Part shown: positions 1,283-25,357 of the stretch, one piece after another
Position numbering within the stretch: the stretch's first letter is position 1
Layout of the letters: the number at the start of each line of letters is the position of its first letter
Origin: Chloroflexota bacterium
GTDB lineage: Bacteria; Chloroflexota; Limnocylindria; Limnocylindrales; CSP1-4
Direction: 5' to 3'
Assembly (NCBI GenBank): GCA_016781485.1
Contig: JADDQH010000004.1
Span: 629 to 64,628, forward strand
DNA length: 64,000 nucleotides
The notes under the pieces: generated by a model
What the model was told of the DNA's origin: nothing
Database searches by the model: none
What the model saw: only the letters and a program-made list of their open reading frames with translations
Translations under genes and position numbers: made by a program

Positions 1283-2599
1283 ATGCCGGGGATCACGGCC
1301 CCCGTCTCACGCGCGGTCGGGCGTTTCACCGACCTCGCGCCCGATCTCCGGGGTCGCTTCCGGCGCCGAGGGGTGTTCGCGTTCCTGGCGGTCATGGGGC
1401 CCGGGCTCATCGCGGGGATCGCGGGCAACGACGCCGGTGGGATCGCGACGTACTCCGCCGTCGGGTCACGGACCGGGTTCGGGTTGCTGTGGTTGTTCCC
1501 CGTCACCATCGTCGTGCTCGCCGTGGTCCAGGAGATGGCGGCGCGGCTCGGAGTGGTCACCGGCCAGGGTCTCTCCGACCTCATCCGCGACCGATTCGGC
1601 GTCCGGTGGACCGCGTTCGCGATGCTCGTGCTGCTCGTCGCGAACCTCGCGAACACCGTGGCCGAGTTCGCCGGCGCAGCCGCCGCGCTGGAGATCTTCG
1701 CGGTCCCGCGGCTGATCACCGTGCCGATCGTCGCGGTCGCGATCTGGGCTCTGGTCCTGTTCGCCAGCTACCGCGCCGTGGAGCGGGTGTTCCTGTCGGT
1801 GATGGTCGTGTTCCTTGCGTACATCGCGTCGGCATTCCTTGCCCGCCCCGATTGGGCGCAGGTCGGGCAGGCACTCGTGACCCCGAACCTCGCGGTGGGC
1901 GCCGAGACACTGTTGCTCATGGTCGCGTTCGTCGGCACCACGATCACGCCCTACATGCAGTTCTACCTGCAGTCGGCGGTCGCCGAGAAGGGGATCGATG
2001 AGGAGGAGCTGAAGCTGGAGCAGGCGGACGCGATCGGGGGGGCCGTCTGGACGAACGTGATCGCGCTGTTCATCGTCGTCGCGACGGCCCAGACGCTGTT
2101 CCTGAACGGGATCCGCGTGGAGGACGCGGCGCAGGCGGCGGAGGCACTCGGCCCGGTCGCGGGGAACCTGGCGCGGGTCCTGTTCGCGGTGGGGCTCTTC
2201 GGCGCGAGCGTGCTCGCCGCGACCATCATGCCCATCAGCACGGCCTTCGTCATCTGCGAGGCGTTCGGCTGGGAGTCGGGCGTCGGCAAGCGCTTCGCCG
2301 ACGCGCCGGCGTTCTTTGCGCTCTACACGTTCGTCCTGTTCGTGGGTGCGCTCGTCGTGCTCATCCCCGGGCTCCCGCTGCTGCGCGTCATCCTCGTCAG
2401 CCAGAACCTCCAGGGGCTGCTGCTCCCGGTCGTGTTGCTATTCATGCTGAAGCTCGTGAACGACCGCCGACTGCTCGGGCGGCACGTGAACGGCGTCAAG
2501 CGGAACCTCCTCGCCGCCGTCGCCGTCGGGCTCGTCATCCTGCTCGACCTGATGCTCCTCGGCTCGGCGGCGCTCGAGGCGGTCGGCCTCAGGACGTGA
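1283..2599 (+). CDS. NRAMP-family cation transporter with non-canonical metal-site motifs (NRMT-like, possible Mg2+ transporter)
   Basis: 438-aa polytopic ORF starting 6 nt after the CBS protein stop. TM1 region GPGLIAGIAGNDAGGIATYS aligns to the canonical GPG..S.GY.DPGN..T, so DPGN reads DAGG. TM6 region VGTTITPYMQFYLQS aligns to the canonical GA..MPHN..LHS, so the Met and His are absent. Confidence 0.8.
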   Translation: MPGITAPVSRAVGRFTDLAPDLRGRFRRRGVFAFLAVMGPGLIAGIAGNDAGGIATYSAVGSRTGFGLLWLFPVTIVVLAVVQEMAARLGVVTGQGLSDLIRDRFGVRWTAFAMLVLLVANLANTVAEFAGAAAALEIFAVPRLITVPIVAVAIWALVLFASYRAVERVFLSVMVVFLAYIASAFLARPDWAQVGQALVTPNLAVGAETLLLMVAFVGTTITPYMQFYLQSAVAEKGIDEEELKLEQADAIGGAVWTNVIALFIVVATAQTLFLNGIRVEDAAQAAEALGPVAGNLARVLFAVGLFGASVLAATIMPISTAFVICEAFGWESGVGKRFADAPAFFALYTFVLFVGALVVLIPGLPLLRVILVSQNLQGLLLPVVLLFMLKLVNDRRLLGRHVNGVKRNLLAAVAVGLVILLDLMLLGSAALEAVGLRT

Positions 2600-10751: not shown

Positions 10752-11570
10752 CTAGCCTTTTCGCGTACTCGCAGTGCCCGCTGGCTCGGGCCGACCCGGG
10801 ACGAGGAGTCCCACTCCCGGACCTGACGCGCCCGGGACGTGGTTCGTCCGGTGCGCCATCGACCATTCCGCCGCCAGCTCGTCCAGGAGCGTATCCCCCG
10901 GCTCGTCGTCGTCCGAGACGATCAATCCGGACGGGGCCATGCACGGCCGAACCGTCCGGAACTCGAACTCCCGATGGGCGCGCGAATGATCCGAGTCGTG
11001 GATGAACAGGTCGAGCGGTGCGGCCTCTCCGGCCGCCGGGCCGAGCAGCCTCCGGCTGTCTCCCAGAAGCAGCGTCCACCGCGCCTTGAGCCTCTCCGGC
11101 ACCAGCCAGCCCGGCTCGGCGCCGAGCGGCAGATCGGTGCCCGGAAGATCGATGCTCGTGAGCGATCCGTGCCCGTTTCGCTCTAGCGCTCGCAGCAGCA
11201 GCGCCGTCGAGAGGCCGTCGTGGACGCCGGTCTCCAGGACCGACTTCGCCTTCGAGAGCCGTACCAGCGCATAGAGGATCTTGAAGCGTCCGAGGTCGAA
11301 CGTGTTCGCCCACTCCCGGCGTCCGCCGCGGTAGCGCTCCTGGAGCTCGGCGACGAACGATGCATCTCCCTCGATCTCCGCGAAGCACTCCTCGACCGTT
11401 TCGACATCGAGCCCCAGCGCCTCGGACACCAATGCGATGTCGGCGGGGCGCGAGGACGTCCCGTAGCGGTTGGAAAGACCGCTTCCGTCGCCGAGTGCGA
11501 ACCTCCGCAGGTGGCGCAGGAGCCGCCGCGGCCGAGTGAGGACGCGCACGACCGAGCCGGGGCCCTCCAT
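10752..11570 (-). CDS. Class I SAM-dependent methyltransferase
   Basis: Motifs SVLETGVHDGLSTALLLRAL ... SLTSIDL ... LDLFIHDSDH. Start taken at ATG 11570. An alternative GTG at 11618 would overlap the upstream GT4 stop by 8 nt. Confidence 0.55.
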   Translation of the reverse strand: MEGPGSVVRVLTRPRRLLRHLRRFALGDGSGLSNRYGTSSRPADIALVSEALGLDVETVEECFAEIEGDASFVAELQERYRGGRREWANTFDLGRFKILYALVRLSKAKSVLETGVHDGLSTALLLRALERNGHGSLTSIDLPGTDLPLGAEPGWLVPERLKARWTLLLGDSRRLLGPAAGEAAPLDLFIHDSDHSRAHREFEFRTVRPCMAPSGLIVSDDDEPGDTLLDELAAEWSMAHRTNHVPGASGPGVGLLVPGRPEPAGTASTRKG

Positions 11571-11610
11571 CCGGGCGCGTCGCCAATAGACGGCAAGGAG
11601 CCGGACTCGA

Positions 11611-12789
11611 TCAGCCACCGCTGTTCCCCCCTGCCAGCGCGAGGTGATACGCCCGGACGTGCGCCTCAGCACACCGCTCGACGCCGAAGCGCTCGACCGC
11701 GCGGCGGCGTCCCGCCTCCACCATCTCTGCCCTCCCGGTCGCGTCGTGCAGGACCGACGACGCGGCAGCGGCGAACGCGGCCGGGTCGAGCGGTGGGACG
11801 ACACGCCCCGTCACGCCGTCATCGATGACCTCTGAGACCCCGCCGACATCGGTGGCGACGACGGGCAGCCCGGAAGCCATCGCCTCCAGGACGACGGTTG
11901 GGATCCCCTCCGACCTCGGGACGGAGGCGAGCGCGAACAGGTCGAACCCCTGGAGCTGTCGGCCGACATCGGGTCGCGTACCCAGGAAATGCACCTCCCT
12001 GTCCTCGACGAGCCCGAGCTCCCCCATCCGCGCTCGCAGCGCACGCGAGTATCCCTCGTGTGCGTCGTACTCGGAGCCGACAAGCACGAGGTGCGCGGTC
12101 GGAAGGGTCGCGCGGAGCCTGGCAAACGCCTCGATGAGGACGTCGATCCCCTTCTGCGGGTTGATGTTCGCGACGGACCCGACGACCGGCACATCGTGCG
12201 GGACACCCCATTCCTCGCGAACCTCCGCCCTGAGGCGCGGCTGGGGCCGGAACGCCTCGGTGTCGACCGGGGGGATGAAGGGAACGAGTCTGCCACGCAC
12301 GTGCTCTGCCCCCGGGAAGTGGGCCAGGATCTTCCGGCCGGTCGTCATCACGACCGTTGCAAGCGTGCGGACCCAGAGCATCGCGGCGAAGGCGAGCGGT
12401 CGCGGCGCACGCGTGTCGAGAAGCTGCCAGACGACGGGCACGCCGGCAGCACGTCCAGCGATCCCCGCGTGCGGGTTCACCAGGCCTCCGACCTGGACGA
12501 TATCGATCCGCCGGTCGCGGACGATCCGCGCGATCTTCGCCACCTCCGGAATGAACCCGGCCGCGAACGGGAGCTGGACATGCGGGTCGGGGGTCGCTCG
12601 CAGCCGGTGGAGGCCCATCGTGAGGACCTCGATCCCGGCCGCGTGGAGCCGCTCCGATGCGTTCCCTGGCTCGTCAGGGAGCAGCACGACGGTTTCGATC
12701 CCTCTCGCACGAAGCGGTGTTGCGAGTCGCAGAGCCTGGTTGTGGGGGCCGCCGAACGTCGAGTGGTGGATGACGAACAGGATCCTCAC
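11611..12789 (-). CDS. Glycosyltransferase family 4 (GT-B, retaining)
   Basis: N-terminus VRILFVIHHSTFGGPHN. C-terminal motif FALASVPRSEGIPTVVLEAMASGLPVVATDVGG (E-x7-E type). Start taken at GTG 12789. The track start at 12861 would abut the divergent gene with no promoter space. Confidence 0.75.
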   Translation of the reverse strand: MRILFVIHHSTFGGPHNQALRLATPLRARGIETVVLLPDEPGNASERLHAAGIEVLTMGLHRLRATPDPHVQLPFAAGFIPEVAKIARIVRDRRIDIVQVGGLVNPHAGIAGRAAGVPVVWQLLDTRAPRPLAFAAMLWVRTLATVVMTTGRKILAHFPGAEHVRGRLVPFIPPVDTEAFRPQPRLRAEVREEWGVPHDVPVVGSVANINPQKGIDVLIEAFARLRATLPTAHLVLVGSEYDAHEGYSRALRARMGELGLVEDREVHFLGTRPDVGRQLQGFDLFALASVPRSEGIPTVVLEAMASGLPVVATDVGGVSEVIDDGVTGRVVPPLDPAAFAAAASSVLHDATGRAEMVEAGRRRAVERFGVERCAEAHVRAYHLALAGGNSGG

Positions 12790-12858
12790 TGTGAACCCGC
12801 TCCGAGAGTCTTCTGGTGATCCCCTCGGCGGGGCCGGGCGGCGCCGAGACAGGCTGGC

Positions 12859-12864
12859 CATAAT
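12859..12864 (+). promoter_or_regulatory. Candidate -10 hexamer (CATAAT) placed 7 nt before ATG 12872; possible leaderless transcript
   Basis: CTGGCCATAATGCACGAGATGGAGGA. The same arrangement is conserved in front of paralog C (CTGGCCATAGTGGGATAGATGGACGGA). Confidence 0.3.
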
Positions 12865-12871
12865 GCACGAG

Positions 12872-14578
12872 ATGGAGGACGTGAGCCGGACGGAGCGGCG
12901 CGCGCCGCGGATCTCCCTGCCTCGCCCGCTTCCATTCCATCCCCTGCTTCTCGCGGCCTACTCGGTCCTGTTCCTGTGGTCACAGAACCTCGACGAGGCC
13001 ACGCTCGGAGATGTCACGCCGCCGCTCGTCCAGGTCGTGATCGCCGCGCTCGTCCTTGTCGGAGTGCTCACGCTCGTCCTGCGCGATGCGCGACGGGCTG
13101 CAGTCGTAGCGAGTGCCATCCTCGCCAGCTTCCTCGGGTTCGGCCACGTCGATCGTCTCCTCGCGCCTCTGCGTCTGGGTCAAGCGGCCCAGTTCGGCGG
13201 CTGGCTGGTCCTGATCGTGATCGCCGCCGCCTTCGCGCTTCGCGCGCGTCGATCGCTTGCACCCGCGACTTCGGCACTCAATGTCGTCGCGTTCGCCCTC
13301 GTCGCCGTCGCGCTGGTCACGATCGCCCCGCACGAGCTCTCCCGGATCGGGCGTGACGAGCCGAACACTGGCGCGCTTCCCCCTGCTGCGGCGTCGGCTA
13401 GCGGCGTAGGCACCCAGCGCGACATCTACTACCTCGTCCTCGACCGCTACGGATCGGAGTCCTCCCTTCGCCTCGATCATGGTTTCGACGACGATCTGCC
13501 GGAGTGGCTGGCCGCGCGCGGGTTCTTCGTCGCGCAGCAGTCCCACGCGAACTACGCGAGGACGGCTCTGTCGCTCGCCGCGACGCTCAACCTGCGGTAT
13601 CTCGACGAGCTGACGAGCCGCTACGGGCGGAAGACGGAGGACGTCACCCCCGCGTACCGGATGATCCGCAACAACGCCGTCGTTCCGTTCATCAAGTCGA
13701 GGGGATACCGCTACATCCATATCGGCTCCTGGTTCGAGGGGACCCGGACGAGTCCCCTCGCAGACGTCAACTTCAACGTGGGCGACGAATCGGAGTTCTC
13801 GTCCGTGTTCGCGGAAACGACCGCTCTGCCCGCGATCTCCGACATGCTCGGCCGGGAGAAGCGTTCACACAGGGAGAGGCACCGTGCCGCCGCCCTGTAC
13901 CAGCTGGAGAAGCTGAGCGAGGCGCGCGCCGTGCCCGGCCCGAAGTTCGTATTCGCGCACGTGCTGCTCCCGCACCAGCCCTACGTCTTCCGCTCCGACG
14001 GCGGTGTCGTCACCGCCGAGGAAGCACGGAGGATGCCCGAGAGCAGGCTCTACGAGGAGCAGCTCCAGTTCACGAAGGACCGGATCCGCGAGATCCTCGA
14101 GCCGCTGCTGAACGTCCCGGAGCCGTCGCGTCCGATCGTCGTCCTCCAATCGGACGAAGGACCGTACGTCCGCGCCGGCTTCCCTGGTTCCGCAGCCGAG
14201 CGGCTTCGGATCCGATACGGGATCCTCAACGCCTTCTATCTCCCTGGCGAGGCGAGTCGGCCTGGTTCGCCCGGCACGACGCCCTACCCGACGATCAGCG
14301 CCGTGAACACGTTCAGGATGCTCTTCAGCCGGTACTTCGCCGCTGATCTTCCACTCCTGCCGGACCGGAGTTACAGGTGGGTCAAAGGTGGGCTCTACGA
14401 CTTCAGGGACGTTACGGACGTCCTTATGGAGGGGGCGTCCGGAGGATCGACGCCGGCTACCCGTGCCCGAACGGGCGGCGCACCCCTAGCTGTGATTCCC
14501 GAGCACGTTGTTGGCATCGACGATCCCACACCGCGCTCGGCGGGCTCGCGCCCCACGCGGCGTTTGTCGACAACTTGA
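12872..14578 (+). CDS. Polytopic alkaline-phosphatase/sulfatase-fold membrane protein, paralog B
   Basis: Start chosen by alignment with paralog C (MEDVSRTERRAPRISLPRPLPFHPLLLAAYSVLFLWSQNLDEATL). Motifs DIYYLVLDRYGSESS, ANYARTALSLAATLN, HVLLPHQP, LQSDEGPY. The last ~30 codons read through the position where the relic copy at 17486-17608 has a stop (TAG 17605-17607), and the two copies differ by an indel there. Confidence 0.65.
   Translation: MEDVSRTERRAPRISLPRPLPFHPLLLAAYSVLFLWSQNLDEATLGDVTPPLVQVVIAALVLVGVLTLVLRDARRAAVVASAILASFLGFGHVDRLLAPLRLGQAAQFGGWLVLIVIAAAFALRARRSLAPATSALNVVAFALVAVALVTIAPHELSRIGRDEPNTGALPPAAASASGVGTQRDIYYLVLDRYGSESSLRLDHGFDDDLPEWLAARGFFVAQQSHANYARTALSLAATLNLRYLDELTSRYGRKTEDVTPAYRMIRNNAVVPFIKSRGYRYIHIGSWFEGTRTSPLADVNFNVGDESEFSSVFAETTALPAISDMLGREKRSHRERHRAAALYQLEKLSEARAVPGPKFVFAHVLLPHQPYVFRSDGGVVTAEEARRMPESRLYEEQLQFTKDRIREILEPLLNVPEPSRPIVVLQSDEGPYVRAGFPGSAAERLRIRYGILNAFYLPGEASRPGSPGTTPYPTISAVNTFRMLFSRYFAADLPLLPDRSYRWVKGGLYDFRDVTDVLMEGASGGSTPATRARTGGAPLAVIPEHVVGIDDPTPRSAGSRPTRRLSTT
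14370..14490 (+). repeat. Copy 1 of a ~121-nt direct repeat (3' terminal coding segment of paralog B)
   Basis: GTTACAGGTGGGTCAAAGGTGGGCTCTACGACTTCAGGGACGTTACGGACGTCC...GGCGTCCGGAGGATCGACGCCGGCTACCCGTGCCCGAACGGGCGGCGCACCCCTAGC. About 90% identical by eye to 17486-17608. Confidence 0.85.
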
Positions 14579-14592
14579 GCGGGAACCACACC

Positions 14593-14826
14593 CTAGCGGA
14601 CGACGAGCTGCGCGGTCGCGAGGGCCGCCTCGAGCGGCGGGTTCGAACGATCGCGCGGCGACAGATCGCGTCCCGCACCGGCGACCCGATCGCCGGTCGC
14701 CCCGTCCATCGACTCGGTCCACCGTTCTCGCCACAGCTCCGTCAGCGACCCTCGATCGTCCCGGCGTGGCTCGAGGCGGCGCTGCAACACGCCCGCGATC
14801 CGCGTGTCCGTCCATCCCTCGGGCAC
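14593..14826 (-). pseudogene. Possible relic of a cupin sugar-nucleotide 3,5-epimerase (RmlC-like) 5' end
   Basis: 77-aa ORF. GTG start preceded by GAGGAGG 6 nt upstream. Only the first ~35 aa (GWTDTRIAGVLQRRLEPRRDDRGSLTELWRERW) resemble the RmlC/FdtA N-terminal beta-strands; the rest is low complexity. Confidence 0.25.
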
Positions 14827-14894
14827 CGCCCACCTCCTCGTTGCCCCCGGCTCGTCCCGGGATACCGCTGCCGCGTCATGCGGCGAGCGCTGGC

Positions 14895-14900
14895 CATAGT
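14895..14900 (+). promoter_or_regulatory. Candidate -10 hexamer (CATAGT) placed 7 nt before ATG 14908; possible leaderless transcript
   Basis: Same spacing and flanking CTGGCCATA context as upstream of paralog B. Confidence 0.3.
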
Positions 14901-14907
14901 GGGATAG

Positions 14908-16524
14908 ATGGACGGAGACAGGCAGTCTCAGCGGCGCCGGTCGCGACTTGCGCTGCCTCGTCCGCTACCACTCCACCCCGTTCTCCTGGCCGCATACTCC
15001 GTCCTGTTCCTCTGGTCGGAGAACCTCGACGAGGCGACGCTCACAGACGTCGCCCCGCCACTGGTGCAGGTCGTCGCAGCCGCGCTCGCCGTTCTCGGGT
15101 TGCTTACGCTCGTCCTTCGCAATCGGCTCGGCGCCGCGGTCATCGCGAGCGCAGTCCTGGCCGGCTTCCTCGCGTTCGGTCACGTCGACAGGATCCTCGC
15201 GCCACTGCGGGTGACGCACGCCGTCCAGTTCGCCGGCTGGCTGATCCTGATCGCCGCGGCCGTCGCCCTCGCGCTTCGCCGGCGCGCGTCGCTGCCGCGG
15301 ATCACCTCGGCGCTTAACATCATGGCGTTCGCGCTCGTCGCCGTCGCGCTCGCGTCGATCATCCCGCATGAGCTGTCGCGCGCCGGGCGCGGCGACGCGA
15401 ACACCGCCGTCGTGTCGCCGACGGCGGCGCCGCCGGGAGAGGGTGTCCGGACGCAGCGCGATATCTACTACCTGGTCTTCGATCGCTACGGGTCCGAGTC
15501 GTCGATCCTGCGGAACCAGGGGCTGGACAACGATCTGCCGGAGTGGCTCACGGAGCACGGGTTCTTCGTCGCGGCGGACTCCCACGCCAACTACGCGAGG
15601 ACGGCCCTCTCGCTCGCCTCGACGCTGAACCTCAAGTATCTCGATGAGCTGACGAACACGTACGGGCGCAACACCGACGACGTGACGCCCACATACCGGA
15701 TGATCCGGAACAATGCGGTCGTCCCGTTCCTGAAGTCCGTCGGGTACCGCTACGTGCACCTCGGCTCGTGGTTCGAGCCCACCCGGACGAGCCCGCTTGC
15801 CGACGTCAACCTGAACGTTCGCGACGACTCCGAGTTCGCCTCCGTGTTCGTCGAGACGACCGTCCTGCCCGCGATCACCGAGATGCTCGGGCAGAAGGTC
15901 TCGCACCGGGAACGGCACCGAACGGCGGCGCTCTACCAGCTGGAGAAGCTGCGGGAGATCCCGGCCCTGCCGGGGCCGAAGTTCGTGTTCGCGCACGTGC
16001 TGCTCCCGCACCATCCGTACGTGTTCCGCGCCGACGGCGGAATCGTGACCGAGGAGGAGGCGCGAGCGATGCCCGAGAGTCGGCGGTTCGAGGAGCAGCT
16101 GAAGTTCACGAACGACCGGATACGCGAGATCCTCGCGCCGCTGCTCGAGCTCCCCGAGCCGTCTCGCCCGATCATCGTGCTCCAGGCTGACGAAGGCCCG
16201 TACGTCCAGGGGCGCGGCCGCCCGGAGGTGGACTGGGTCAACATCCGTTACGGGATCCTAAACGCCTTCTATCTCCCGGACGGCGCAGCGGCGGGTCCGG
16301 GGAGCGAGCCGTACGCCGCGATCAGCTCCGTGAACACGTTCAGGATGCTATTCAACCGATACTTCGGTGCTCGGGTCCCCCTCCTGCCGGACAGAAGTTA
16401 TTGCGCTCGTTCCCGTACTTCAGGCCGAGCTGAGCGATGCCGTCGTGAAGCATCAGCGAACCACACGCGGAAGGAAGGCCTCTACGACTTCGTCGACGTG
16501 ACGCACCTTCTCGCGAGGCGGTAG
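14908..16524 (+). CDS. Polytopic alkaline-phosphatase/sulfatase-fold membrane protein, paralog C
   Basis: 538-aa ORF. N-terminus MDGDRQSQRRRSRLALPRPLPLHPVLLAAYSVLFLWSENLDEATL. Motifs DIYYLVFDRYGSESS, ANYARTALSLASTLN, HVLLPHHP, LQADEGPY. Carries a paralog-specific 25-codon linker at 16402-16476. Confidence 0.65.
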   Translation: MDGDRQSQRRRSRLALPRPLPLHPVLLAAYSVLFLWSENLDEATLTDVAPPLVQVVAAALAVLGLLTLVLRNRLGAAVIASAVLAGFLAFGHVDRILAPLRVTHAVQFAGWLILIAAAVALALRRRASLPRITSALNIMAFALVAVALASIIPHELSRAGRGDANTAVVSPTAAPPGEGVRTQRDIYYLVFDRYGSESSILRNQGLDNDLPEWLTEHGFFVAADSHANYARTALSLASTLNLKYLDELTNTYGRNTDDVTPTYRMIRNNAVVPFLKSVGYRYVHLGSWFEPTRTSPLADVNLNVRDDSEFASVFVETTVLPAITEMLGQKVSHRERHRTAALYQLEKLREIPALPGPKFVFAHVLLPHHPYVFRADGGIVTEEEARAMPESRRFEEQLKFTNDRIREILAPLLELPEPSRPIIVLQADEGPYVQGRGRPEVDWVNIRYGILNAFYLPDGAAAGPGSEPYAAISSVNTFRMLFNRYFGARVPLLPDRSYCARSRTSGRAERCRREASANHTRKEGLYDFVDVTHLLARR

Positions 16525-16570
16525 CGCCCGAGCGGGACCTCCACATGGGGTGCGGTCGACCGCTGCGGGT

Positions 16571-17470
16571 TCAGGGAACGCCCGGATCCTCCTTCGCGAA
16601 CCGCCGGAGCGGGCCTCCGCCGTGCACCATCCGTCGTACGGGAGAGAGGAGTGGCTCCCAGACGAATCGGCGCAGCGCGTCCGCGGCACACACCGACATG
16701 GGAATCGTGAGCAGCATCGTGTACTGCGGCCACTTCGACGGCCACACGAGCAGGAATGCCAGCCCGATTTCGAGCCACAGCACGAACACGCGATGTCGTC
16801 GCCACGCGGGCAGTGACTCCGCGATCGCGAGCGCTCCGATGACGGTGTCGGCGGTCACGAGGAACACTCCCCGGTGTCCGCCTGTCGCCTTGAAGATCCC
16901 GGTCGAGTCGTGAGCCGGGACGGGCTTCGATAGCCACACCACCGGCTGCCATGGCGGGAGCGCGACGCGCGTGACCGTCGGTCCCGCCGCATACGCGGAT
17001 GGAACAGCAGCGACCGGCGCAGCCGACCGAGCGGTCCTGCCAAAGATGGACGTTGCGACGAAGAAGACGCCAGTGATGACGAGTGCCGACAGGGCGACCC
17101 GGGCGGGTACGCTGCAAGTGACGGCCCTTGGCGAGGGTCGCGGAGACGTCGGCAGGGGTGGTCGGTGGGTGGCTCGGCATCGCCGCTCTTCCGGTCCCTC
17201 GTCGGCCACGAGGCCGCGGCCGCGACGCTGGCGTCGTTCCTGCGCTTCTGACAGCAGCCAGTCGGCAAGGACCGCCACGGCGACGACTGCGTAGATGTAC
17301 TTCGAGGCGGCAGCGACGCCGAACGCGACCCCCGATACGACGAGCCACCGTGACGGGCGGCGCCTCGACCTGAGGTAGCACAGGACGCCGAGGAGTGCGG
17401 CCAGGCCCGGCAGAGCCTCGAGTATCACCTCGCTCGTGTACTTGATGTGCCACGTATCGACGGCGAGCAC
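16571..17470 (-). pseudogene. 5'-truncated GT-C (PMT_2/ArnT-like, GT39/83-type) glycosyltransferase fragment
   Basis: 299-aa ORF holding only C-terminal-type TM segments and a tail (LWLEIGLAFLLVWPSKWPQYTMLLTIPMSV). The frame is closed by a TGA inside the adjacent repeat, and homology ends at the 17471-17485 junction. Family assignment is from memory of PMT_2 C-termini. Confidence 0.4.
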
Positions 17471-17485
17471 GAGCGCTGGCCAACG

Positions 17486-17608
17486 GTTACAGGTGGGTCA
17501 AAGGTGGGCTCTACGACTTCAAGGACGTTACCGACGTCCTCCTCGAGCGGGCGTCCGGAGGATCGACGCCGGCTACCCGTACCCGAACCGGCGGCGGACC
17601 CCCCTAGC
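17486..17608 (+). pseudogene. Copy 2 of the ~121-nt repeat: relic of the last ~40 codons of a fourth alkaline-phosphatase-fold paralog
   Basis: Translates as GYRWVKGGLYDFKDVTDVLLERASGGSTPATRTRTGGGPP-stop, with no upstream coding body. Directly preceded (17471-17482) by GAGCGCTGGCCA, the same 12-mer that lies upstream of paralog C's start (14885-14896). Confidence 0.7.
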
Positions 17609-17657
17609 CGCGCGTTCCGGCGGCGTCAGGAGCGTCACCGCGGCAGCTGGTCAGCAC

Positions 17658-18821
17658 TCAGCGACTGCTCGCCGCCTCAGCCTCCCACGCTCCTTCGCCA
17701 TCCCTCTCGAGCACCGCCCGCAGCTTCTCCAGGTCGCGGTCGCCCACGTGGTCGAGCACTGTCCATCGTCCCGGGCGGGTGCTCCGCCCGTTCGCGACGG
17801 CCGCCGTGAACTCGTCATTGCTGATGCCGAGTTCGCGCGGGAGCACCGGCAGCCCGACAGCGCGGTAGAAGCTCACCAGCCGCTGACAAGCGTCCCCCCT
17901 CAGCAGATACGCGGCGACCGTTCCGAGGGCGACCTGCAGCCCGTGGGGGCGTGGGGTCGGCAGGAGACGGTCAAGGGCATGGCTGATGAGGTGCTCGGAC
18001 CCGCTCGCCGGTCTCGACGACCCCGCCATCTCCATCGCGATCCCACTGAGGATGAGGCCGCGGATCAGTTTCTGTCGGAAGGCCGGGTCCCCGAGATCGG
18101 CGTCGTCCTCGATCACCGACGAGGCCGCGGCCTCAGCCGTGAGGCAGGCGAAGTCGTCGATCTCCTCCCCTACCGTGCGATGCGCCAGCCGCCAGTCGAG
18201 GACCGCCGAGAGGTTCGAGACGAGATCACCGAGACCCGACAGCCAGGTCACCGTCGGCGCCTGGCCGAGCACCTCCATGTCTACGGCGATCCCCGCGGGA
18301 ATGCGCGCGCCGAGCGAATGGGGACGCCCGTCGGGTGTCACCATGACCGCGACGGGCGAGCAGATGCCGTCGCTCGAAGCCTGCGTGGGGATGCTCACGA
18401 GCTCCACCTCTCGCTCGGCCGCCGCGAGCTTCGCGACATCGACGACGCGGCCGCCGCCGACGCCCACGACGAAGTCGGGGCGCTCGCGATCGATCGAGCC
18501 GACGACGTGGCGCACTGATCCTTCGCTGTTCGTGGCCACCCCGGGGCTAGACGCGAGCACGCATTCCGTCACCTGCAACCGGAGCGACCGCGCCTCCGCA
18601 GCGAGTGACGTGGCGTAGCCGGTCGCGGATGCGGCGCCGGAATGCACGAACAGGAACCGTGCATCGCCGCCGTCCGCGAGCTCACGCAGGACGACGGCGA
18701 CCGCAGCGCGCCCGCTCACGATGCGCAGCAGCCGCGGGATCCGGATCGAGCGATGGCGGGAGGTCGCGCCGATCACCGCGTGAGCAACGGCTCCCTCGAA
18801 GGACAGCGCGTCGATGAGCAC
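17658..18821 (-). CDS. sn-Glycerol-1-phosphate dehydrogenase family (EgsA/AraM-like, Fe/Zn-ADH superfamily)
   Basis: 387-aa ORF. Motifs GVGGGRVVDVAKLAA, VSIPTQASSDGICSPVAV, LGDLVSNLSAVLDWRLA, SGSEHLISHALD. These match the G1PDH signature blocks as I remember them. Confidence 0.7.
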   Translation of the reverse strand: MLIDALSFEGAVAHAVIGATSRHRSIRIPRLLRIVSGRAAVAVVLRELADGGDARFLFVHSGAASATGYATSLAAEARSLRLQVTECVLASSPGVATNSEGSVRHVVGSIDRERPDFVVGVGGGRVVDVAKLAAAEREVELVSIPTQASSDGICSPVAVMVTPDGRPHSLGARIPAGIAVDMEVLGQAPTVTWLSGLGDLVSNLSAVLDWRLAHRTVGEEIDDFACLTAEAAASSVIEDDADLGDPAFRQKLIRGLILSGIAMEMAGSSRPASGSEHLISHALDRLLPTPRPHGLQVALGTVAAYLLRGDACQRLVSFYRAVGLPVLPRELGISNDEFTAAVANGRSTRPGRWTVLDHVGDRDLEKLRAVLERDGEGAWEAEAASSR

Positions 18822-18989
18822 GGGCGGCCGGTCCGGAACCGGACGTTACAGGTGCTGGCGCCCTTGACCGTCAGGCGCGCTTCGTGCGCGGCCGTTTGGA
18901 CGGGGAGCGTCGGTCGGTCGACGGCGCTGGGGTCGCGGAAGGAGCGGCCGTCGGCGTGGTTCCCCTCCAACGTCGGGGAGACGCAGGGG

Positions 18990-19163
18990 TCAGTGGTCTC
19001 GCGCCGGCTCGTGCTCTCCGCGGCGTCCGACACGCCGGATCGCGGAGATGCCCTTTGCGATCTGAGCCCGGAAGAAGAGGGGGATCGCGACGGCGCCCGC
19101 GATGAGCGCCTGGACGATGATGGCCCCCGTTCCGGGGTCGATGTACGCGAACAGGGGATGCAT
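18990..19163 (-). CDS. Small (57 aa) single-pass membrane protein, absent from the supplied ORF track
   Basis: Hand translation: MHPLFAYIDPGTGAIIVQALIAGAVAIPLFFRAQIAKGISAIRRVGRRGEHEPARDH-stop (TGA at 18990-18992). Shine-Dalgarno GGAGGA lies 4 nt upstream of the ATG (19168-19173). Sits between the G1PDH and cytidylyltransferase genes on the same strand. Confidence 0.5.
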   Translation of the reverse strand: MHPLFAYIDPGTGAIIVQALIAGAVAIPLFFRAQIAKGISAIRRVGRRGEHEPARDH

Positions 19164-19271
19164 CTGCTCCTCCAGGGGATGTCGGTCTCCTCGCCGGCGA
19201 TCTCGACACCGGCAGGGTGGCGACTTCGGAGCTTAGCACGAGCGGCCGACACAACCACGATCGAGGTACGG

Positions 19272-20012
19272 TCAGCGCTTACCGTCGAGCTCCTTTGCGA
19301 TCGCCGTCGCCCTCTCGTAGTCCGCGAGGTCGTCGATCTCCGTCCACGCTCGGCGCGCCACGGGCAGCGGGCGGATGACGAGCCGGGAGGCGACGGCGTC
19401 GATAGCGTCCTCGTAGTACAGGTCGCCCCCGCCCTCGTCGACGAGACGTCGCGCCGCCGCGATGACCTCTGCCGCACCCGCTGCATCGAACCGTGCGATC
19501 CCGATGTACTCGCCCACCGACGTCGCCGGCGACAGCTTCTTGCTGATGCGGCTCACGGACCCGTCGCCGTCGAGTTCGACCTTCATCTCCTCCGCGCCCA
19601 GTGGTTCGTCCGTATCCACCACCAGCCAGGAGCCGCGGGACGCGGCTGCGACATCGGCGAGGATGCGCGCGTCGAACACGATGTCGGAGTTGAGCAGGCA
19701 TAGACCGTGCGACATCTCGTCGGCGGCCGTCAGGAACGACACGATGTTGTTCGCAGCGTCGAACTGCGGGTTGAACCGGCAGCGGACCTCGAGCCCCCAT
19801 TCACGCCGCGCCACGAAGTCGTCGACCAGCTCCGCCCGGTGACCCGTGACCACGACGGCCTCGGGAAACGAAGCGCCCGCGAGCGCCTCCAGCGAGCGCC
19901 CGAGGAGCGTCCTCCCCGCGACCTCGACGAGGGCTTTGGGTCGGTCGTGGGTGAGCGACGACAGGCGCCGACCGAGCCCCGCCGCGAGGATGACCGCGAC
20001 CGGAAGCGTCAT
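19272..20012 (-). CDS. Alcohol/sugar-phosphate cytidylyltransferase (NTP_transferase fold, LicC/IPCT-like)
   Basis: 246-aa ORF. N-terminal VAVILAAGLGRRLSSLTHDRPKALVEV (G-x-G-x-R ... K nucleotide-binding signature). C-terminal WTEIDDLADYERA. Confidence 0.7.
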   Translation of the reverse strand: MTLPVAVILAAGLGRRLSSLTHDRPKALVEVAGRTLLGRSLEALAGASFPEAVVVTGHRAELVDDFVARREWGLEVRCRFNPQFDAANNIVSFLTAADEMSHGLCLLNSDIVFDARILADVAAASRGSWLVVDTDEPLGAEEMKVELDGDGSVSRISKKLSPATSVGEYIGIARFDAAGAAEVIAAARRLVDEGGGDLYYEDAIDAVASRLVIRPLPVARRAWTEIDDLADYERATAIAKELDGKR

Positions 20013-20287
20013 CTACCCATCGCATCCTGCCGCCGGCGTCGACGCGGTCGGGGCGCAGGCAAGGTGGTACGCCCGAGAGTAGTCACAACGTCCTCCAAGC
20101 CCCCGCCGCACCGCGCTCCTGATCGCGTTGTTGCGGCTGCTGTCTTCGATGATATCGACCGCCTGGTCCCTCTCGGGCACTACGAGAGAGGGACGGCGAC
20201 TGCGCGTCGGTGCGCGAGGATCACGGTCGTCGGTGACCGCAGCCGAGTGATCCACGCCGCCGCGGACGCGTCGTCGACGGTGGATCC

Positions 20288-21151
20288 GTGAGTCAGCGCG
20301 AGCCGGTAGAGTTGAGCCGTGCCCCTCGCGACCCTCTGCCCGCTCGGCCGACCGTCGCTCGACCGGCTCGTGGCGCACTAGGCGTGGCGCCTGCTGGCGC
20401 CGTCGGGTTCCGTGGTAGGGCGCGCGAGTTCTGGCGACGCTACCAGCATCCCGAGGGCCTGTTCTGGCTGAGGCGGGTGAACCACCCACTCGGGGCGCTC
20501 ATCGCCCTGGTCCTCCTGCCCACCCGGGTAACACCCAACGCGGTGAGCGTGGCCGGACTCGTGGTCCACGTCGCGGGCGCGCTGTTCGTGGCGTTGCTGT
20601 CGCCTCCCGTCCCGATCACTGCTGCGCTGCTCGTCATCGTGTCGTGGCAGCTCGCGTTCTCGCTCGACTGCGCCGACGGCCCCCTGGCCCGTGCTCGCGC
20701 CCAAGCGAGCGCCTTCGGCGCCTGGCTCGACCAGCTGATCGACGTCGCGTCGCACGCCGCTGTCTACACCGGACTCACGATCTTCCTCGTACGTGCCCTC
20801 GCGCTCGACGGGATCACGTCCGCGCTGCTCGCCTCCGTCGTCGTCACGCTGAGCCTGCTCCAGACCTTCTCGACCTGGCAGCGACAGGCGCTGATAGCCG
20901 GCGCCCCTGTCGGCGAAGCTCCTTCCACCATGCTCCGACTGGTACATGCGGCACGTCACCTCGTCGACTACGGCGCGTTCCTGTTCCTCGCGTCGGTGCT
21001 GCTCCTGTGGCCGCCCGCGCTGCTCGTGTTCCTGCTGCTCACGGCCGTGCTGAACCTCCTCTACGTGATGACGCAGATCGCTCTCAACTGGAGACGTCAC
21101 AGGAGGGAAAGCCGGGCGGCGTGGACGGACGGGAAAGGCCAACAGCTCTGA
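20288..21151 (+). CDS. CDP-alcohol phosphotransferase family membrane enzyme
   Basis: Exact family signature D-x2-D-G-x2-A-R-x8-G-x3-D-x3-D in LDCADGPLARARAQASAFGAWLDQLIDV. Multiple TM segments. The start is uncertain (GTG 20288). Confidence 0.85.
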   Translation: MSQREPVELSRAPRDPLPARPTVARPARGALGVAPAGAVGFRGRAREFWRRYQHPEGLFWLRRVNHPLGALIALVLLPTRVTPNAVSVAGLVVHVAGALFVALLSPPVPITAALLVIVSWQLAFSLDCADGPLARARAQASAFGAWLDQLIDVASHAAVYTGLTIFLVRALALDGITSALLASVVVTLSLLQTFSTWQRQALIAGAPVGEAPSTMLRLVHAARHLVDYGAFLFLASVLLLWPPALLVFLLLTAVLNLLYVMTQIALNWRRHRRESRAAWTDGKGQQL

Positions 21152-21183
21152 CCGCCGGAGCGGTGCAAACCGTTCGAGCACGA

Positions 21184-21927
21184 ATGACGGGGGGTGGGCT
21201 CGAGAGTGGTTCGTTCCTGACGTCCTCCTCCCGTTCGCAGCGACCCGGATCGCCCTCTCCCTCGTAGGGCTCCTGGCACTCACCCTCGTGACTCCGCGCG
21301 TCTTCGTTTCTCCGAACCAGCTCCCCGCGACGCCCCATCTCGTCAATGCGTAGTCCTACCGGGACTCCGGCTGGTACCTCGTGATCGCGCGCGACGGCTA
21401 CAGCTACATCCCCGGGCATCGATCGGCCGTGGGCTTCTGGCCACTCTTCCCATTCCTTATGCGCGCTCGGTACCCTGATCGGCGCGAACGACACCGCGGG
21501 GCTGCTGACGATCGGGTTCGTCGTCTCGAACGTCGCACTGCTCGTCGGGCTCGTCTACCTCGTCGCGCTCGTGCGGCTCGACTTCGACCGCGCCACCGCG
21601 GCACGCGCGGTGCTGTATCTCCTGGTGTTCCCGACGACACTGTTCCTGTCGGCCGTGTATGCCGAGTCGCTGTTCCTCGCGCTCACGGTGGCAGCCTTCT
21701 ACCACGCGCGGCGCGGGCAGTGGTGGATCGCGGGCGCGCTCGGAGGGCTCGCCGCGCTCGCACGGCCACATGGTGTGCTGCTCGCGCTGCCGCTCGCCGT
21801 CGAGTACCTCGCGCAGCGGGACTTCGACCTGCGCGCGATCCGCGGGAACATCCTCGCGCTCGCCGGGAACGAGCATGACATCCCCGCGTGGCGACGGAAC
21901 GCCTCGCGGCTGAAGCGACGTGCCTAG
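21184..21927 (+). pseudogene. Decayed PIG-V-like GT-C glycosyltransferase (closest to paralog C)
   Basis: Homologous frame reads WAREWFVPDVLLPFAATRIALSLVGLLAL...HLVNA-stop-SYRDSGWYLVIARDGYSYIPGHRSAVGFWPLFPFLMRA, then shifts frame to LGTLIGANDTAGLLTIGFVVSNVALLVGLVYLVALVRLDFDRATAARAVLYLLVFPTTLFLSAVYAESLFLAL...RPHGVLLALPLAVEYLAQR. Four lesions: ATG 21184 is out of frame across a G6 run (21189-21194); TAG at 21351-21353 where the paralogs have Trp; a frameshift near 21465; homology ends near 21875, so the 3' half is missing. Confidence 0.8.
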
Positions 21928-22661
21928 CGACGGCGGGGGATACGGGCGCGAAACGCCTGGACGTACCAGTACAGGTAATGGGGAAGCCACGCGCGGAGCT
22001 TGAACCTGCTCCGGCCGGCGGTCCGATCACGCCAGATCGTCGGCACCTCGGCCATCGTCCGGCCTCCGAGGAACGCCTTCACCGACAGCTCGATGCCGAG
22101 TTCGAACCCTCCACGGCTCTCGATGGCCACCTCGTCGAGGAACGACCGGCTGTAGAGCTTGAAGTTGTTCGTGGCGTCGTGGATCGGTACCCCGGCGAGC
22201 CAGTGGAGCGAGAGTCCGGCGCATCTGCTCAGCAGCCGTTTGAGCCGGGGCCCGCCGATCTGGCGGCCGCCTCGCATGTACCGGCTCGCCGCAACGACGG
22301 CAGCTCCCCGCCGAGCCGCTGCGACCATGCGATCGACCGAGGAAAGGTCGTCGGAGCCATCCGCCATGGACACTAGGATGTAGCGGCCGGTCGAGGCGGC
22401 GATGCCTGCTTTCATCGCGTTCAGCGCGCCTCTTCCGAACGTGTTGTGGAGCGGGCGGACGTGCCGCATCTCGGCCTGCATCGAGCGCACGACAGGGAGC
22501 GTGGTGTCCTCGGGGAAGTCGTAGACGACGAGGATCTCGTGTGGTGTCTCGACACGCGCCGCGAAGTCGCGAAGGACCGGCGCGATGTTGTCGCCCTCGT
22601 TGTAGACGGGGATCACGACCGAGAGCTCCGGCGTTGCCGGTGCCCGGGCGGTCTCAGTCAC
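21924..22661 (-). CDS. GT2 polyprenyl-phosphate glycosyltransferase (DPM1/ArnC/GtrB-like)
   Basis: Motifs LSVVIPVYNEGDNIAPVL ... ILVVYDFPEDTT ... VSMADGSDD. Start taken at GTG 22661, overlapping the upstream stop by 8 nt (GTGACTGA). Confidence 0.8.
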   Translation of the reverse strand: MTETARAPATPELSVVIPVYNEGDNIAPVLRDFAARVETPHEILVVYDFPEDTTLPVVRSMQAEMRHVRPLHNTFGRGALNAMKAGIAASTGRYILVSMADGSDDLSSVDRMVAAARRGAAVVAASRYMRGGRQIGGPRLKRLLSRCAGLSLHWLAGVPIHDATNNFKLYSRSFLDEVAIESRGGFELGIELSVKAFLGGRTMAEVPTIWRDRTAGRSRFKLRAWLPHYLYWYVQAFRARIPRRR

Positions 22662-23682
22662 GCTCCGCGGCCGCGGGCTCGCGCCGCGCAGCGGAAGCGA
22701 GCCTGGAAAGGCTCGAGAGCGACCCCACGCCACCGCCTCCGATGGCAGCCAGCGAGACTGCTCCTGCAACGGCGAGGGGAAGGGTCGTGAACACGTGTGC
22801 GAGCACGGCGAGCGCAAGTGCCTGGCTGCCGGGCACGCCGAGTGCCGTCGCCGCCGAGATGACCGCGACCTCATACGTGCCCACGAACGCGGGCGCCGAG
22901 GGTACGGCGGTGCCCAGCACCGTGACCGCCGCGATCAACAGTGCGGCGGGCCACGTGAGGTCGATGGCGACGGACTGTGCGACGAGCCGGAACGTCGCGC
23001 CCTCCAGCAGCCACGTTCCACAGCTGATGCCGGCGGCGGCCAGGACAGCAGGACGGCGGTGGGCTCCCGCAGAGCCGACGGCGAACCGCTCGAGGCGCGT
23101 CTCGAGCCAGTGGCGCCGCTGGGCGCCGAACACGGCGAGCGGACGGGCGAGGAGCGGCACGAGTCGCACGATGCCCGTCGTAGAGAGCACGAAAACGACG
23201 GTCGCTCCACCTAGCGCAGCGATGCCGGCGATCCGGACCAGCCACTCGGGCGCGTCGAGGCTGATGGCCGCCAGGAACGCGATGCCGGCAAGCGTCGCGA
23301 GGTCCACGACGCGCTCGATCACCACCGACCCGAACGCCTCGCTGCCGTGCAGCCCCTCGCGTCGAGAGACGAGAAAGGCGCGGATCGGCTCACCGAGTCG
23401 AGCCGGCAACACCGCGTTCCCGAGATACCCCACGAGAAGGCTCGGGGCGACGACCCGCACGGGCACGCGCGCCCCGTCGGCACGACGCGGCAGGAGCAGC
23501 TGCCAGCGGACGGAACGGAGCACGAGCTGGGAGGTGACGATGGCCAGGGTCGCGAGGAGTGGGGACACATCCGCCGCGCGAACGGCCCGCTCGGCGGCTG
23601 GCAGATCCATCGAGCGGGCGATGAGCCACAGGGACGCGGCGCTCGCTGCGATCCCCACCGCCGCAAGCACGAGGCCCCGCAT
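22654..23682 (-). CDS. Flippase-like membrane protein (lysyl-PG synthase TM-region/UPF0104 family)
   Basis: Polytopic. Motifs RSVRWQLLLP, LVGYLGNAVLPARLGEPIRAFLVSRREG. Start ATG 23682, 2 nt after the upstream stop. Confidence 0.6.
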   Translation of the reverse strand: MRGLVLAAVGIAASAASLWLIARSMDLPAAERAVRAADVSPLLATLAIVTSQLVLRSVRWQLLLPRRADGARVPVRVVAPSLLVGYLGNAVLPARLGEPIRAFLVSRREGLHGSEAFGSVVIERVVDLATLAGIAFLAAISLDAPEWLVRIAGIAALGGATVVFVLSTTGIVRLVPLLARPLAVFGAQRRHWLETRLERFAVGSAGAHRRPAVLAAAGISCGTWLLEGATFRLVAQSVAIDLTWPAALLIAAVTVLGTAVPSAPAFVGTYEVAVISAATALGVPGSQALALAVLAHVFTTLPLAVAGAVSLAAIGGGGVGSLSSLSRLASAARREPAAAERD

Positions 23683-23684
23683 CG

Positions 23685-24338
23685 CTATCCGGGTCGCTCC
23701 CCGACGTACAGCGTCTGCTTGCCGAGAAGCAGCCAGGCCGGTGGGAACCGGAGATAGGTACGGACGAGGAGCGGGTGCGCAGGCAGCCGGCTCTTCGTGG
23801 TGTAAGGAAGGAACCGCGTCGTGAGATGCGTGGTGGTGAAGCCCGCTATCTCCGCCGCCTCCACGAGGCTCTTCTCCGTCAGGGGGACCGAATGGTCGAT
23901 GAAGTCCCAATACGCCGCGCCGACGAGTCTGATGTTCGGCTGTAGGACGATGATGCGGCCGCGCGGGCGAAGCAGCTGCGCGCTGACCCGGAGCTGTTCC
24001 ACGACGTCGTCCGAGCTGCGCAGGTGCTCCAGGTAGTTGCTCATGAACACGGTGCCGAAGTACGCGCGCGGTAGGAGCTCGCCGAGCGCAAGGCCGTCAG
24101 CCTGGACGAACCGCACGTCACGCGGGAGATGCGCGGAAACGTCTCGGAGATCGCTCGCCCACCGTTCTCGCGCACGGACGTTCCGGATGAAGTCCCCTCG
24201 GTCGCACGCGACGTCGAGTACCGGCGCACCCGGCACCACATGACGCTGGAGGTATCTCGTCACCTCCCGCCACAGGCGCCCTTTCTGAGCGGCCTCGACA
24301 TCGGAGAACCGGCGCGCGTAGACGCCGGGAAGCGCCAC
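23685..24338 (-). CDS. Class I SAM-dependent methyltransferase
   Basis: Motifs VLDVACDRGDF (motif I) ... GTVFMSNYLEH. The GTG start at 24338 shares 1 nt with the upstream TAG. Confidence 0.6.
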   Translation of the reverse strand: MALPGVYARRFSDVEAAQKGRLWREVTRYLQRHVVPGAPVLDVACDRGDFIRNVRARERWASDLRDVSAHLPRDVRFVQADGLALGELLPRAYFGTVFMSNYLEHLRSSDDVVEQLRVSAQLLRPRGRIIVLQPNIRLVGAAYWDFIDHSVPLTEKSLVEAAEIAGFTTTHLTTRFLPYTTKSRLPAHPLLVRTYLRFPPAWLLLGKQTLYVGERPG

Positions 24339-25357
24339 TAGATCTGCTCCGCCTCCGACTCCGCCTCGATCCACGGGATGACCTCGTCCAGCATCTCGTC
24401 AAGCGACGTCGTCGCCTCGAACCCCAGCACGTCGCGAGCCTTCCGCACGTCGGGCACCCGAAGCTGGACGTCGTGCTCGAAGGCCGGATCGCTCACGTAC
24501 CGGAACGGACGGTCGGGGTTGATCTTGCGCCAGATCAGCTCCGCGAGCTCCAACACGGTCGTGCTCGCCGCGGTCGACAGGTTGAAGTCTTCGTTGACCG
24601 CAGCCGGCGACTCCATGGCGATTCGGATCCCGCGCGCAAGATCGCCGCCGTAGGTGTAATGACGCACCTGGGTGCCGTCGCCCAGGATGTGGAGCGGGTC
24701 CTGGCCTTTCAGGACCTTCATCACGAGGTCCGGCACGACGTGACTGAGCGCCAGCTTGATGTTCCCGCTCATCACGTCCGCGTCGCGCAGCGCTCGCCGC
24801 TCCCCGATCCCCACGCAGTTGAAGGGGCGCACGATCGTGTATGGGAGTTCGTACTGCTCCCAGGCGCCCCTCGCGAAGTACTCGCTCGCCAGCTTCTGGA
24901 ACCCATACGTCGAGACCGGCGGCGGGCTCGTGAGCTGCGCGCCTTCGGGCGTCGGGAAGACGGTCGACGACTCGTAGACCATCGAGCTCGACATCACGAC
25001 GATGCGCTGGAGGCGGCCGTTCCGGAAGGCGTCGATCGCCCCGTCGAACGTCGCCGCGAGGATCCTCTCGTTCTCGGCCAGCAGGTCGTACGCGAACTGG
25101 TGGAAGTAGCTGATGCCCCCGATCATCGCTGCCGCCGCCACGACCTGATCGCGATCGGCGCTCAGCTCCCGCATCAGCGCCACGTCCTTCGCGTCCCCGA
25201 TGACCAGCCGGTACCGGGGGTGCTCGTCGTAACTGCGCGCGGTCGGGCCGTACTTGCTGAAGTTGTCCAGCCCCACGACGTCGTGTCCGGCGTCGAGCAG
25301 CTCGGGGATGAGGTAGCCGCAGATGAAGCCGCTGGCGCCGGTGACTAGGACCTTCAT
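24338..25357 (-). CDS. NAD-dependent nucleotide-sugar epimerase/dehydratase/decarboxylase (extended SDR)
   Basis: N-terminal MKVLVTGASGFICGYL Rossmann motif. Catalytic Y-x3-K in STYGFQKLASE. 339 aa. Exact reaction not assignable from sequence. Confidence 0.8.
   Translation of the reverse strand: MKVLVTGASGFICGYLIPELLDAGHDVVGLDNFSKYGPTARSYDEHPRYRLVIGDAKDVALMRELSADRDQVVAAAAMIGGISYFHQFAYDLLAENERILAATFDGAIDAFRNGRLQRIVVMSSSMVYESSTVFPTPEGAQLTSPPPVSTYGFQKLASEYFARGAWEQYELPYTIVRPFNCVGIGERRALRDADVMSGNIKLALSHVVPDLVMKVLKGQDPLHILGDGTQVRHYTYGGDLARGIRIAMESPAAVNEDFNLSTAASTTVLELAELIWRKINPDRPFRYVSDPAFEHDVQLRVPDVRKARDVLGFEATTSLDEMLDEVIPWIEAESEAEQI

Follow-up and report, generated by a model that had tools for sequence, protein, structure and literature searches.

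The locus and its genes

The DNA examined here is a 64,000-nucleotide stretch (the window) of a Chloroflexota bacterium, part of a 69-kb contig (C49) in a 2.83-Mb draft genome of 133 contigs, with a G+C content of 69.3% in both window and genome. The window sequence is identical to NCBI record JAGELI010000023.1 (GCA_017884105.1), and homologues of its genes are named Chloroflexota or Candidatus Limnocylindrales in the sources; no paper was found under the assembly or run accessions. We focus on a short gene remnant (the ghost; 17486 to 17608, plus strand) between a glycerol-1-phosphate dehydrogenase (G1PDH)-like gene and a glycosyltransferase gene that has lost its 5' end. An earlier reading of the sequence alone (the sequence-only reading) had taken this region as the scar of a rearrangement between paralogs that brought the G1PDH gene into the locus.

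To the left of the ghost are two plus-strand genes of a sulfatase-like family, paralog B (12869 to 14578), which is intact, and paralog C (14908 to 16524), its tandem duplicate. They are followed on the minus strand by the 5'-truncated, PMT_2-like GT-C gene (GT-C'; 16571 to 17485, with the called open reading frame [ORF] at 16571 to 17470), as delimited by PF13231 and an alignment of five homologues. To the right, all on the minus strand, are the G1PDH-like Fe-ADH gene (17658 to 18776; called ORF, 17658 to 18821), delimited by PF13685 and homologue alignment; a methyltransferase-like relic, Y' (18780 to 18950), recognized by the motif and profile of its family, Y; an intact gene, s57 (18990 to 19163), for a single-helix membrane protein of 57 amino acids (aa), with homologues in relatives; and a cytidylyltransferase-like NTP-transferase gene (NTPtr; 19272 to 20012), the conserved upstream partner of G1PDH. 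Relatives compared were 40 family- and order-level genomes, and outside proteins were drawn from 5.8 billion searched.

A paralog tail without a gene body

The ghost consists of the last 40 codons and TAG stop of a B-like paralog (here called X), with no gene body, and its product reads GYRWVKGGLYDFKDVTDVLLERASGGSTPATRTRTGGGPP before the stop. A repeat search and blastn against the genome both aligned 17486 to 17602 with 14370 to 14486 in paralog B (117 nt, ungapped, 92.3% identity, E of 2.7e-42). The two copies differ at 9 of 117 positions and have exact runs of 36 nt (17486 to 17521) and 32 nt (17549 to 17580) in common. In a gapped alignment, the homology extended over 14370 to 14490 and 17486 to 17608 with a single 2-nt indel, ending at the ghost TAG, so that the ghost is 92% identical over 123 nt to B codons ~501 to 541. 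This was the sole significant match of 16500 to 19000 to anything in the whole 2.83-Mb genome (blastn), confirming the claim of roughly 90% identical direct repeats of which the second lacks a gene body. A tblastn search likewise matched only these 34 to 40 codons (88% over 34 aa).

The ghost frame is closed 14 codons upstream by a TGA (17443 to 17445), and no ATG, GTG, or TTG occurs in frame between that stop and the repeat. Substitutions between ghost and B comprise three synonymous and five non-synonymous changes; in this small sample, the ghost appears to be without sign of purifying selection. By its homology, the ghost appears to derive from a paralog resembling B, now lost (X), within the polytopic sulfatase/alkaline-phosphatase-like family. 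The possibility that the repeat contains a structured RNA or acts as a regulatory element was rejected: folding z-scores were −0.7 to +0.3, no Rfam match was obtained, and scans of the repeat showed no sites resembling promoters or terminators.

The 2-nt difference from the ghost keeps the B frame open for 30 codons past the equivalent of the ghost TAG, to 14578. The G+C content at third codon positions (GC3) of this extension (14480 to 14578, plus strand) is 0.67, compared to 0.84 in the body of B; the present C-terminus of B may therefore be a recent read-through.

The family to which X would have belonged has at least five loci besides the ghost and is larger than the sequence-only reading assumed. 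Three loci lie in the window, namely paralogs A (2596 to 4263), B, and C. Paralog D is carried by contig C98, and the fifth locus, on contig C85 (2 to 394, minus strand), comprises the N-terminal ~130 codons of another paralog with 42% identity to B, cut off where the contig stops. Mutual identities among A, B, C, and D are 54 to 69% (B versus C, 69% at the aa level), and no outside protein is more than 51% identical to B. Since identity within the family exceeds that to outside proteins, the expansion is lineage specific. Paralog A scores just below the PF00884 cut-off (24.8 versus 25 bits), B and C have no match to PF00884 or to any other Pfam or NCBIfam model, and some homologues of the paralogs carry a precomputed PF00884 match. 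No solved structure matches the paralogs by sequence.

The linker between the conserved PDRS[YF] and [LI]YDF blocks measures 6 aa in B, 15 aa in A, 26 aa in C, and 17 aa in D. The sequence-only reading had placed all breakpoints in this linker as a shared hotspot; the lengths that it gave (5, 16, and 25 aa for B, A, and C) were close, and the hotspot itself comes down to a single breakpoint, since only that of the ghost falls there. The C linker (16385 to 16480, plus strand; CARSRTSGRAERCRREASANHTRKEG) is without codon periodicity, and its opposite strand is coding-like (LMLHDGIAQLGLKYGN). No source of this 26-aa linker was found elsewhere in the genome.

A headless glycosyltransferase gene at the same junction

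The ghost directly abuts GT-C' at the 17485/17486 junction. GT-C' matches PF13231 (PMT_2) at 26.9 bits (cut-off, 26.1), a match limited to GT-C' residues 24 to 80 and profile positions 81 to 136 of 160. Its minus-strand frame is open from 17497, reading PTCNRWPALVLAVDTWHIKYTSEV, and is closed upstream by a TGA (17498 to 17500) inside the repeat, as first proposed. Five homologues from family- or order-level relatives align from ALVLAVDTW onward (~17476), so that GT-C homology begins within 10 nt of the junction. The matching point lies at residues 135 to 158 in homologues of 377 to 399 aa, at 288 in one of 542, and at 489 in one of 1100. GT-C' is thus missing ~135 to 157 N-terminal codons; the truncation at the junction is real, and the share lost is about one third of the protein rather than the two thirds first estimated. 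The lost part is an N-terminal membrane segment that includes the acidic first-loop motif DFDEDDY, conserved in 5/5 homologues, and the N-terminal thirds of the homologues have no match anywhere in the genome. With this segment and its motif absent from the copy and from the rest of the genome, GT-C' is a relic and not a working family member.

The same reading had seen, immediately left of the ghost, a 5' flank like that of paralog C fused to the paralog tail, based on a 12-mer, GAGCGCTGGCCA, present at 14885 and 17471. The identity exists and in fact covers 13 nt. The 12-mer occurs once more elsewhere in the genome, and 1.5 copies are expected from composition. A recurring 12-mer starts at 8% of window positions, and the 45 nt left of the junction hold eight of them. 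Since 78% of random 45-nt stretches of the window contain at least one, the match is no better than background, and we regard it as due to chance. The two copies are also read in different codon phases in two different coding sequences. On the minus strand, 17471 to 17482 encodes W-P-A-L of GT-C, while the copy at 14885 to 14896 lies within 14883 to 14897, which reads ATGGCCAGCGCTCGC (M-A-S-A-R) on the minus strand and is a relic of the first codons of a GT4 glycosyltransferase gene. This gene, the true neighbour of B, starts with ATGGCCAGCCTGTCTCGG at 12861. What had seemed the 5' flank of a paralog is thus a GT4 start upstream of C and GT-C codons at the junction.

The sequence upstream of B is duplicated upstream of C (12853 to 13152 and 14889 to 15188). 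In the B/C tandem duplication (unit period, 2036 nt), the opening ~6 codons of the divergently oriented GT4 gene were copied as well (14883 to 14897; 12847 to 12868). A conserved CCATAAT/CCATAGT stands upstream of both paralogs; its CAT is the start codon of GT4 in the case of B and a duplicated remnant of that codon in the case of C. The small ORF at 14593 to 14826 has no detectable homologue.

A methyltransferase relic upstream of G1PDH

The 10-mer GTTACAGGTG occurs in the whole genome only at 14370, 17486, and 18845, always on one strand (about 2.4 copies are expected from composition). The first two copies are homologous to each other, as parts of B and the ghost. The third lies in a 22-mer (18833 to 18854), 1.4 kb from the ghost, that the sequence-only reading took for another paralog piece. 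The three sites stand as described, and the third belongs to a different gene. In the genome-wide search, the 22-mer reached an E of only 0.26 and was the best non-homologous match of that B segment.

The gene s57, between NTPtr and G1PDH, has a product beginning MHPLFAYIDPGTGAIIVQALIAG and homologues in six relatives (39 to 57% identity in five relatives of the genome sample) and in locus L018 (52%). In L013, L014, L015, and L017, it is directly followed by a methyltransferase-like gene, Y, of ~470 to 550 aa; in L013, L014, and L018, it stands beside a paralog-family gene. A tblastn search with Y proteins matched the minus strand at the third fragment, where 18910 to 18818 reads TLPVQTAAHEARLTVKGASTCNVRFRTGRP (in Y, TLDLQAAALECGLTLKDASAYNIQFRGCRP) and where a frame shifted by one base gives PVLIDALSFEG from 18824 on (in Y, PILIDTLSFER). 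The corresponding motif, LKDASAYN[IV]QF..RP[IM]L[IV]D[ST]LSFE, is invariant in 4/4 Y homologues. Y' would therefore read GRSFRDPSAV, then TLPVQTAAHEARLTVKGASTCNVRFRTGRP, then, after a 1-nt frameshift near 18822, VLIDALSFEG; its N-terminal piece, FRDPSAV (18920 to 18950), is a weak match. About 85 internal codons and the C-terminal half of Y are missing, and ~60 codons remain.

A Y profile, built from only four homologues, gave a genome-wide E of 0.22 against the raw six-frame segment and 32 bits (E of 1.6e-7 at the same database size) when Y' was read through one frameshift. The profile match is collinear, and the relic occupies the position after s57 where Y is expected. The two 1-nt indels of the 22-mer relative to B preserve the Y codon phase, and the conserved Y motif itself matches the B 22-mer at about 14/20 positions. 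Given the match in Y codon phase and the profile E value, 18833 to 18854 appears to be Y by descent and its resemblance to B coincidental.

G1PDH within a conserved neighbourhood

The gene enclosed by the ghost and Y' matches PF13685 (Fe-ADH_2) at 91.6 bits and NF002022 (NAD(P)-dependent glycerol-1-phosphate dehydrogenase) at 246.5 bits, below the cut-off of 413; JGI names its homologues G1PDH, and we treat this activity as putative. Since homologues of 354 to 366 aa align from residue 16 to 23 of the called ORF, the start is probably GTG at 18776. The first 15 codons of the called ORF (VLIDALSFEGAVAHA) are Y relic, and the frame is open to 18821 because it runs into that relic.

Among 12 related Chloroflexota loci (L010, L011, L018, and L026 to L034), NTPtr is immediately upstream of G1PDH in 11. 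The closest long contig (L010), with a G1PDH 72% identical to that of the window, has NTPtr, G1PDH, GT4, and MT24 contiguous (orthologues 54 to 72% identical), with a 4-nt overlap of NTPtr and G1PDH and with GT4 directly following G1PDH. Nearby are a CDP-alcohol phosphotransferase, a 555-aa paralog-family protein, and a lactamase-rhodanese gene; overall, L010 genes are 43 to 72% identical to those of the window. In L018 the order is CDP-alcohol phosphotransferase, NTPtr-G1PDH, and GT4-paralog-s57-MT24-LactB. The window has the same genes at wider spacing. NTPtr and G1PDH are separated by 450 nt (s57 and Y'), and G1PDH is separated from GT4 (11611 to 12861, minus strand) by 4.8 kb (ghost, GT-C', C, and B) that is inserted relative to L010; the Methyltransf_24 (MT24) gene (10752 to 11804, minus strand) follows GT4, and the CDP-alcohol phosphotransferase gene (20288 to 21151, plus strand) lies beyond NTPtr. 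The GC3 of G1PDH is 0.82 to 0.88, like that of neighbouring genes.

Because NTPtr and G1PDH are immediate neighbours in 11/12 loci, G1PDH is the resident gene, and the paralogs, GT-C, and s57-Y are additions later eroded by deletion. Import of G1PDH by rearrangement, the central proposal of the sequence-only reading, finds no support in the conserved position, the uninterrupted L010 order, or the composition. No G1PDH was found at E of ≤1e-20 in the 40 sampled family- and order-level genomes, and the whole NTPtr/G1PDH module may therefore be patchily distributed. In Limnocylindrales and Chloroflexia metagenome-assembled genomes, the NTPtr-G1PDH pair is tightly conserved, often near a CDP-alcohol phosphotransferase. 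Judging from gene content, the locus appears to be a conserved Chloroflexota envelope-glycopolymer cluster of CDP-alcohol phosphotransferase, NTPtr and G1PDH, GT4, methyltransferase, and polytopic sulfatase-like proteins. Elsewhere in the window, at 21571 to 21927 (plus strand), no more than a 118-aa ORF is annotated publicly, with weak similarity to PIG-V (Mannosyl_trans2); since intact PIG-V-like genes of the window have 400 or more aa, this ORF is likely another relic of the same locus.

Origin of the junction

We consider it probable that the locus records extra genes gained and then partly lost, with a ~2-kb deletion having made the ghost. The cluster in this lineage would have gained paralogs B, C, and X, a GT-C, and s57-Y, giving an earlier minus-strand order of NTPtr, s57, Y, G1PDH (with X convergent), GT-C (with C and B on the opposite strand), GT4, and MT24. 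One deletion of ~2 kb across the divergent 5' ends of X and GT-C would then have taken out X as far as codon ~500 together with the intergenic region and the ~150 opening codons of GT-C, so that the final 40 codons of X came to adjoin a GT-C without its head at 17485/17486. Y would have been shrunk to ~60 codons directly upstream of G1PDH by other deletions and a 1-nt frameshift. A relic of a further B-like paralog fused to a 5'-truncated GT-C, as the sequence-only reading saw it, is thus retained, and the rearrangement with G1PDH import is not.

Several points weigh against this deletion history. The searched collections contain no genome sufficiently related to display X, GT-C, or Y in intact form at this site, and the ancestral order is a reconstruction for that reason; among the 40 relatives, none is near enough for nucleotide-level synteny, and exact and degenerate patterns for an intact X had no match in JGI metagenomes. 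GT-C is not adjacent to a paralog in five relatives, as judged from 1.5-kb flanks only. The top non-homologous match of the B segment (the 22-mer, E of 0.26) lies 1.4 kb from the ghost, a coincidence that we find uncomfortable. Finally, the B/ghost homology ends sharply on both sides, which also fits a short copied patch.

Such a patch is the alternative that survives best, and we consider it unlikely. The ghost would never have been a complete gene; instead, ~123 nt of B, or of a copy resembling it, would have been ectopically copied to a break lying between G1PDH and GT-C, either as a templated patch or by partial duplication, with GT-C truncated in the same or another event. The sharp limits (with GTTACAGGTG at the left end and the stop codon at the right end) fit this, as does the lack of any other trace of an X body in the genome. 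However, the 8% divergence implies either an old copy or a donor that has since disappeared, and the sharp right limit is expected in any case, because B/C homology also ends near the stop codon. Moreover, two other deletion relics (GT-C' and Y') lie in the locus, where deletion is a demonstrated process.

Deletion also competes with ideas that give GTTACAGGTG itself a role. That it is a recombination hotspot, a microhomology repeatedly guiding template switching or deletion in the glycan cluster, is highly doubtful; if it were true, G1PDH, in a 1359-bp unit, could be looped out. Slightly less credible still is recombination at the PDRSY/LYDF linker that deleted a fourth paralog and carried G1PDH in, with the GTTACAGGTG copies marking breakpoints. 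The 10-mer does occur three times in 2.83 Mb on the same strand, with two copies flanking G1PDH, the 22-mer is the top non-homologous match, and the sampled relatives lack G1PDH. Nevertheless, this model is already largely refuted by the conserved NTPtr-G1PDH pair, the third site being Y sequence in Y codon phase, the background 12-mer in GT-C codons, and a G1PDH composition equal to that of its neighbours.

We give just as little credence to an excisable 1359-bp unit of G1PDH and paralog tail, moved by site-specific or microhomology-mediated recombination. Exact 10-bp repeats, unique to this locus, enclose exactly one gene at 17486 and 18845, but each is by descent part of a different gene's coding sequence, and the joined flanks do not restore GT-C. 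The 69-kb contig has no tyrosine or serine recombinase (no match to PF00589 or PF00239). The joined empty site (CTGGCCAACG-GTTACAGGTG-CTGGCGCCC) was not found in JGI metagenomes, a weak test, and the position of G1PDH beside NTPtr is ancestral. A related candidate, a split GT-C with 17486 to 18844 as an insertion and a 10-bp target duplication, was rejected because, although the joined flanks leave the frame open, the upstream part bears no resemblance to GT-C N-termini.

Least probable of all is an assembly chimera at the repeat, which the 133-contig draft state of this metagenome-assembled genome, the exact B/ghost runs of 36 and 32 nt, and Logan contigs that break inside the ghost might suggest, but against which stand the 9/117 positions that distinguish the copies and the recovery of the junction elsewhere. 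A 3035-nt contig of another assembly (GCA_017884065.1) equals window positions 15461 to 18495 at 100% identity and covers C, GT-C', the ghost, and part of G1PDH. In both SRR12717696 and SRR12717688, Logan contigs extend from C across GT-C' and a further 30 nt beyond the junction, to 17515, and another Logan contig corresponds to 17551 to 24821. The junction is reproduced by independent assemblies from two sequencing runs. The Logan contigs end inside the ghost at the two exact runs common to B, which would be expected short-k-mer assembler behaviour.

Comparison with known systems and implications

Most likely, the whole finding is ordinary gene decay, pseudogene debris in a fast-turning glycan locus. 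Like deletion-generated remnants beside intact paralogs in other bacteria, the ghost is a short 3' fragment homologous to a living paralog, lacks a start codon, and shows nothing to indicate purifying selection; the gene next to it is cut short at the junction between them, and other relics are close by. In contrast to those cases, it is found in a glycan locus of a free-living soil Chloroflexota and not in a host-restricted decaying genome, and a span of 2.5 kb contains three relics, grouped around a single intact, conserved gene.

Polytopic enzymes with the LtaS/sulfatase fold occur in Gram-positive envelope-polymer loci as several paralogs, for example, the LtaS-type proteins of Bacillus subtilis. 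The family described here may share their architecture, an N-terminal membrane domain with an extracellular alkaline-phosphatase-fold domain. It is also similar in having several paralogs per genome (A, B, C, D, the contig-end fragment, and the ghost), linked to genes of glycerol-phosphate metabolism. It differs in that B and C have no Pfam or NCBIfam match and A falls under the PF00884 cut-off, and its function is putative. A likeness to integron- or Campbell-type cassettes goes as far as one gene (G1PDH) and a short tail between identical 10-bp direct repeats; in contrast to such a cassette, no recombinase is encoded on the contig, the repeats belong to two coding sequences unrelated to each other, and the gene stands in its ancestral position. 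The integron core consensus is GTTRRRY, which the core here does not fit.

The wider consequence is small and consists mainly of annotation corrections. The 299-aa "PMT_2" ORF is a pseudogene without its head; the called G1PDH ORF, which runs into a relic, probably exceeds the gene by 15 codons; and between s57 and G1PDH there is a methyltransferase relic that the annotation lacks. As a lesson in method, short exact matches at 69% G+C need a background count and a protein homology check on both strands. In this Chloroflexota envelope locus, NTPtr and G1PDH form a stable core, around which the sulfatase-like paralogs and glycosyltransferases turn over by duplication and deletion.

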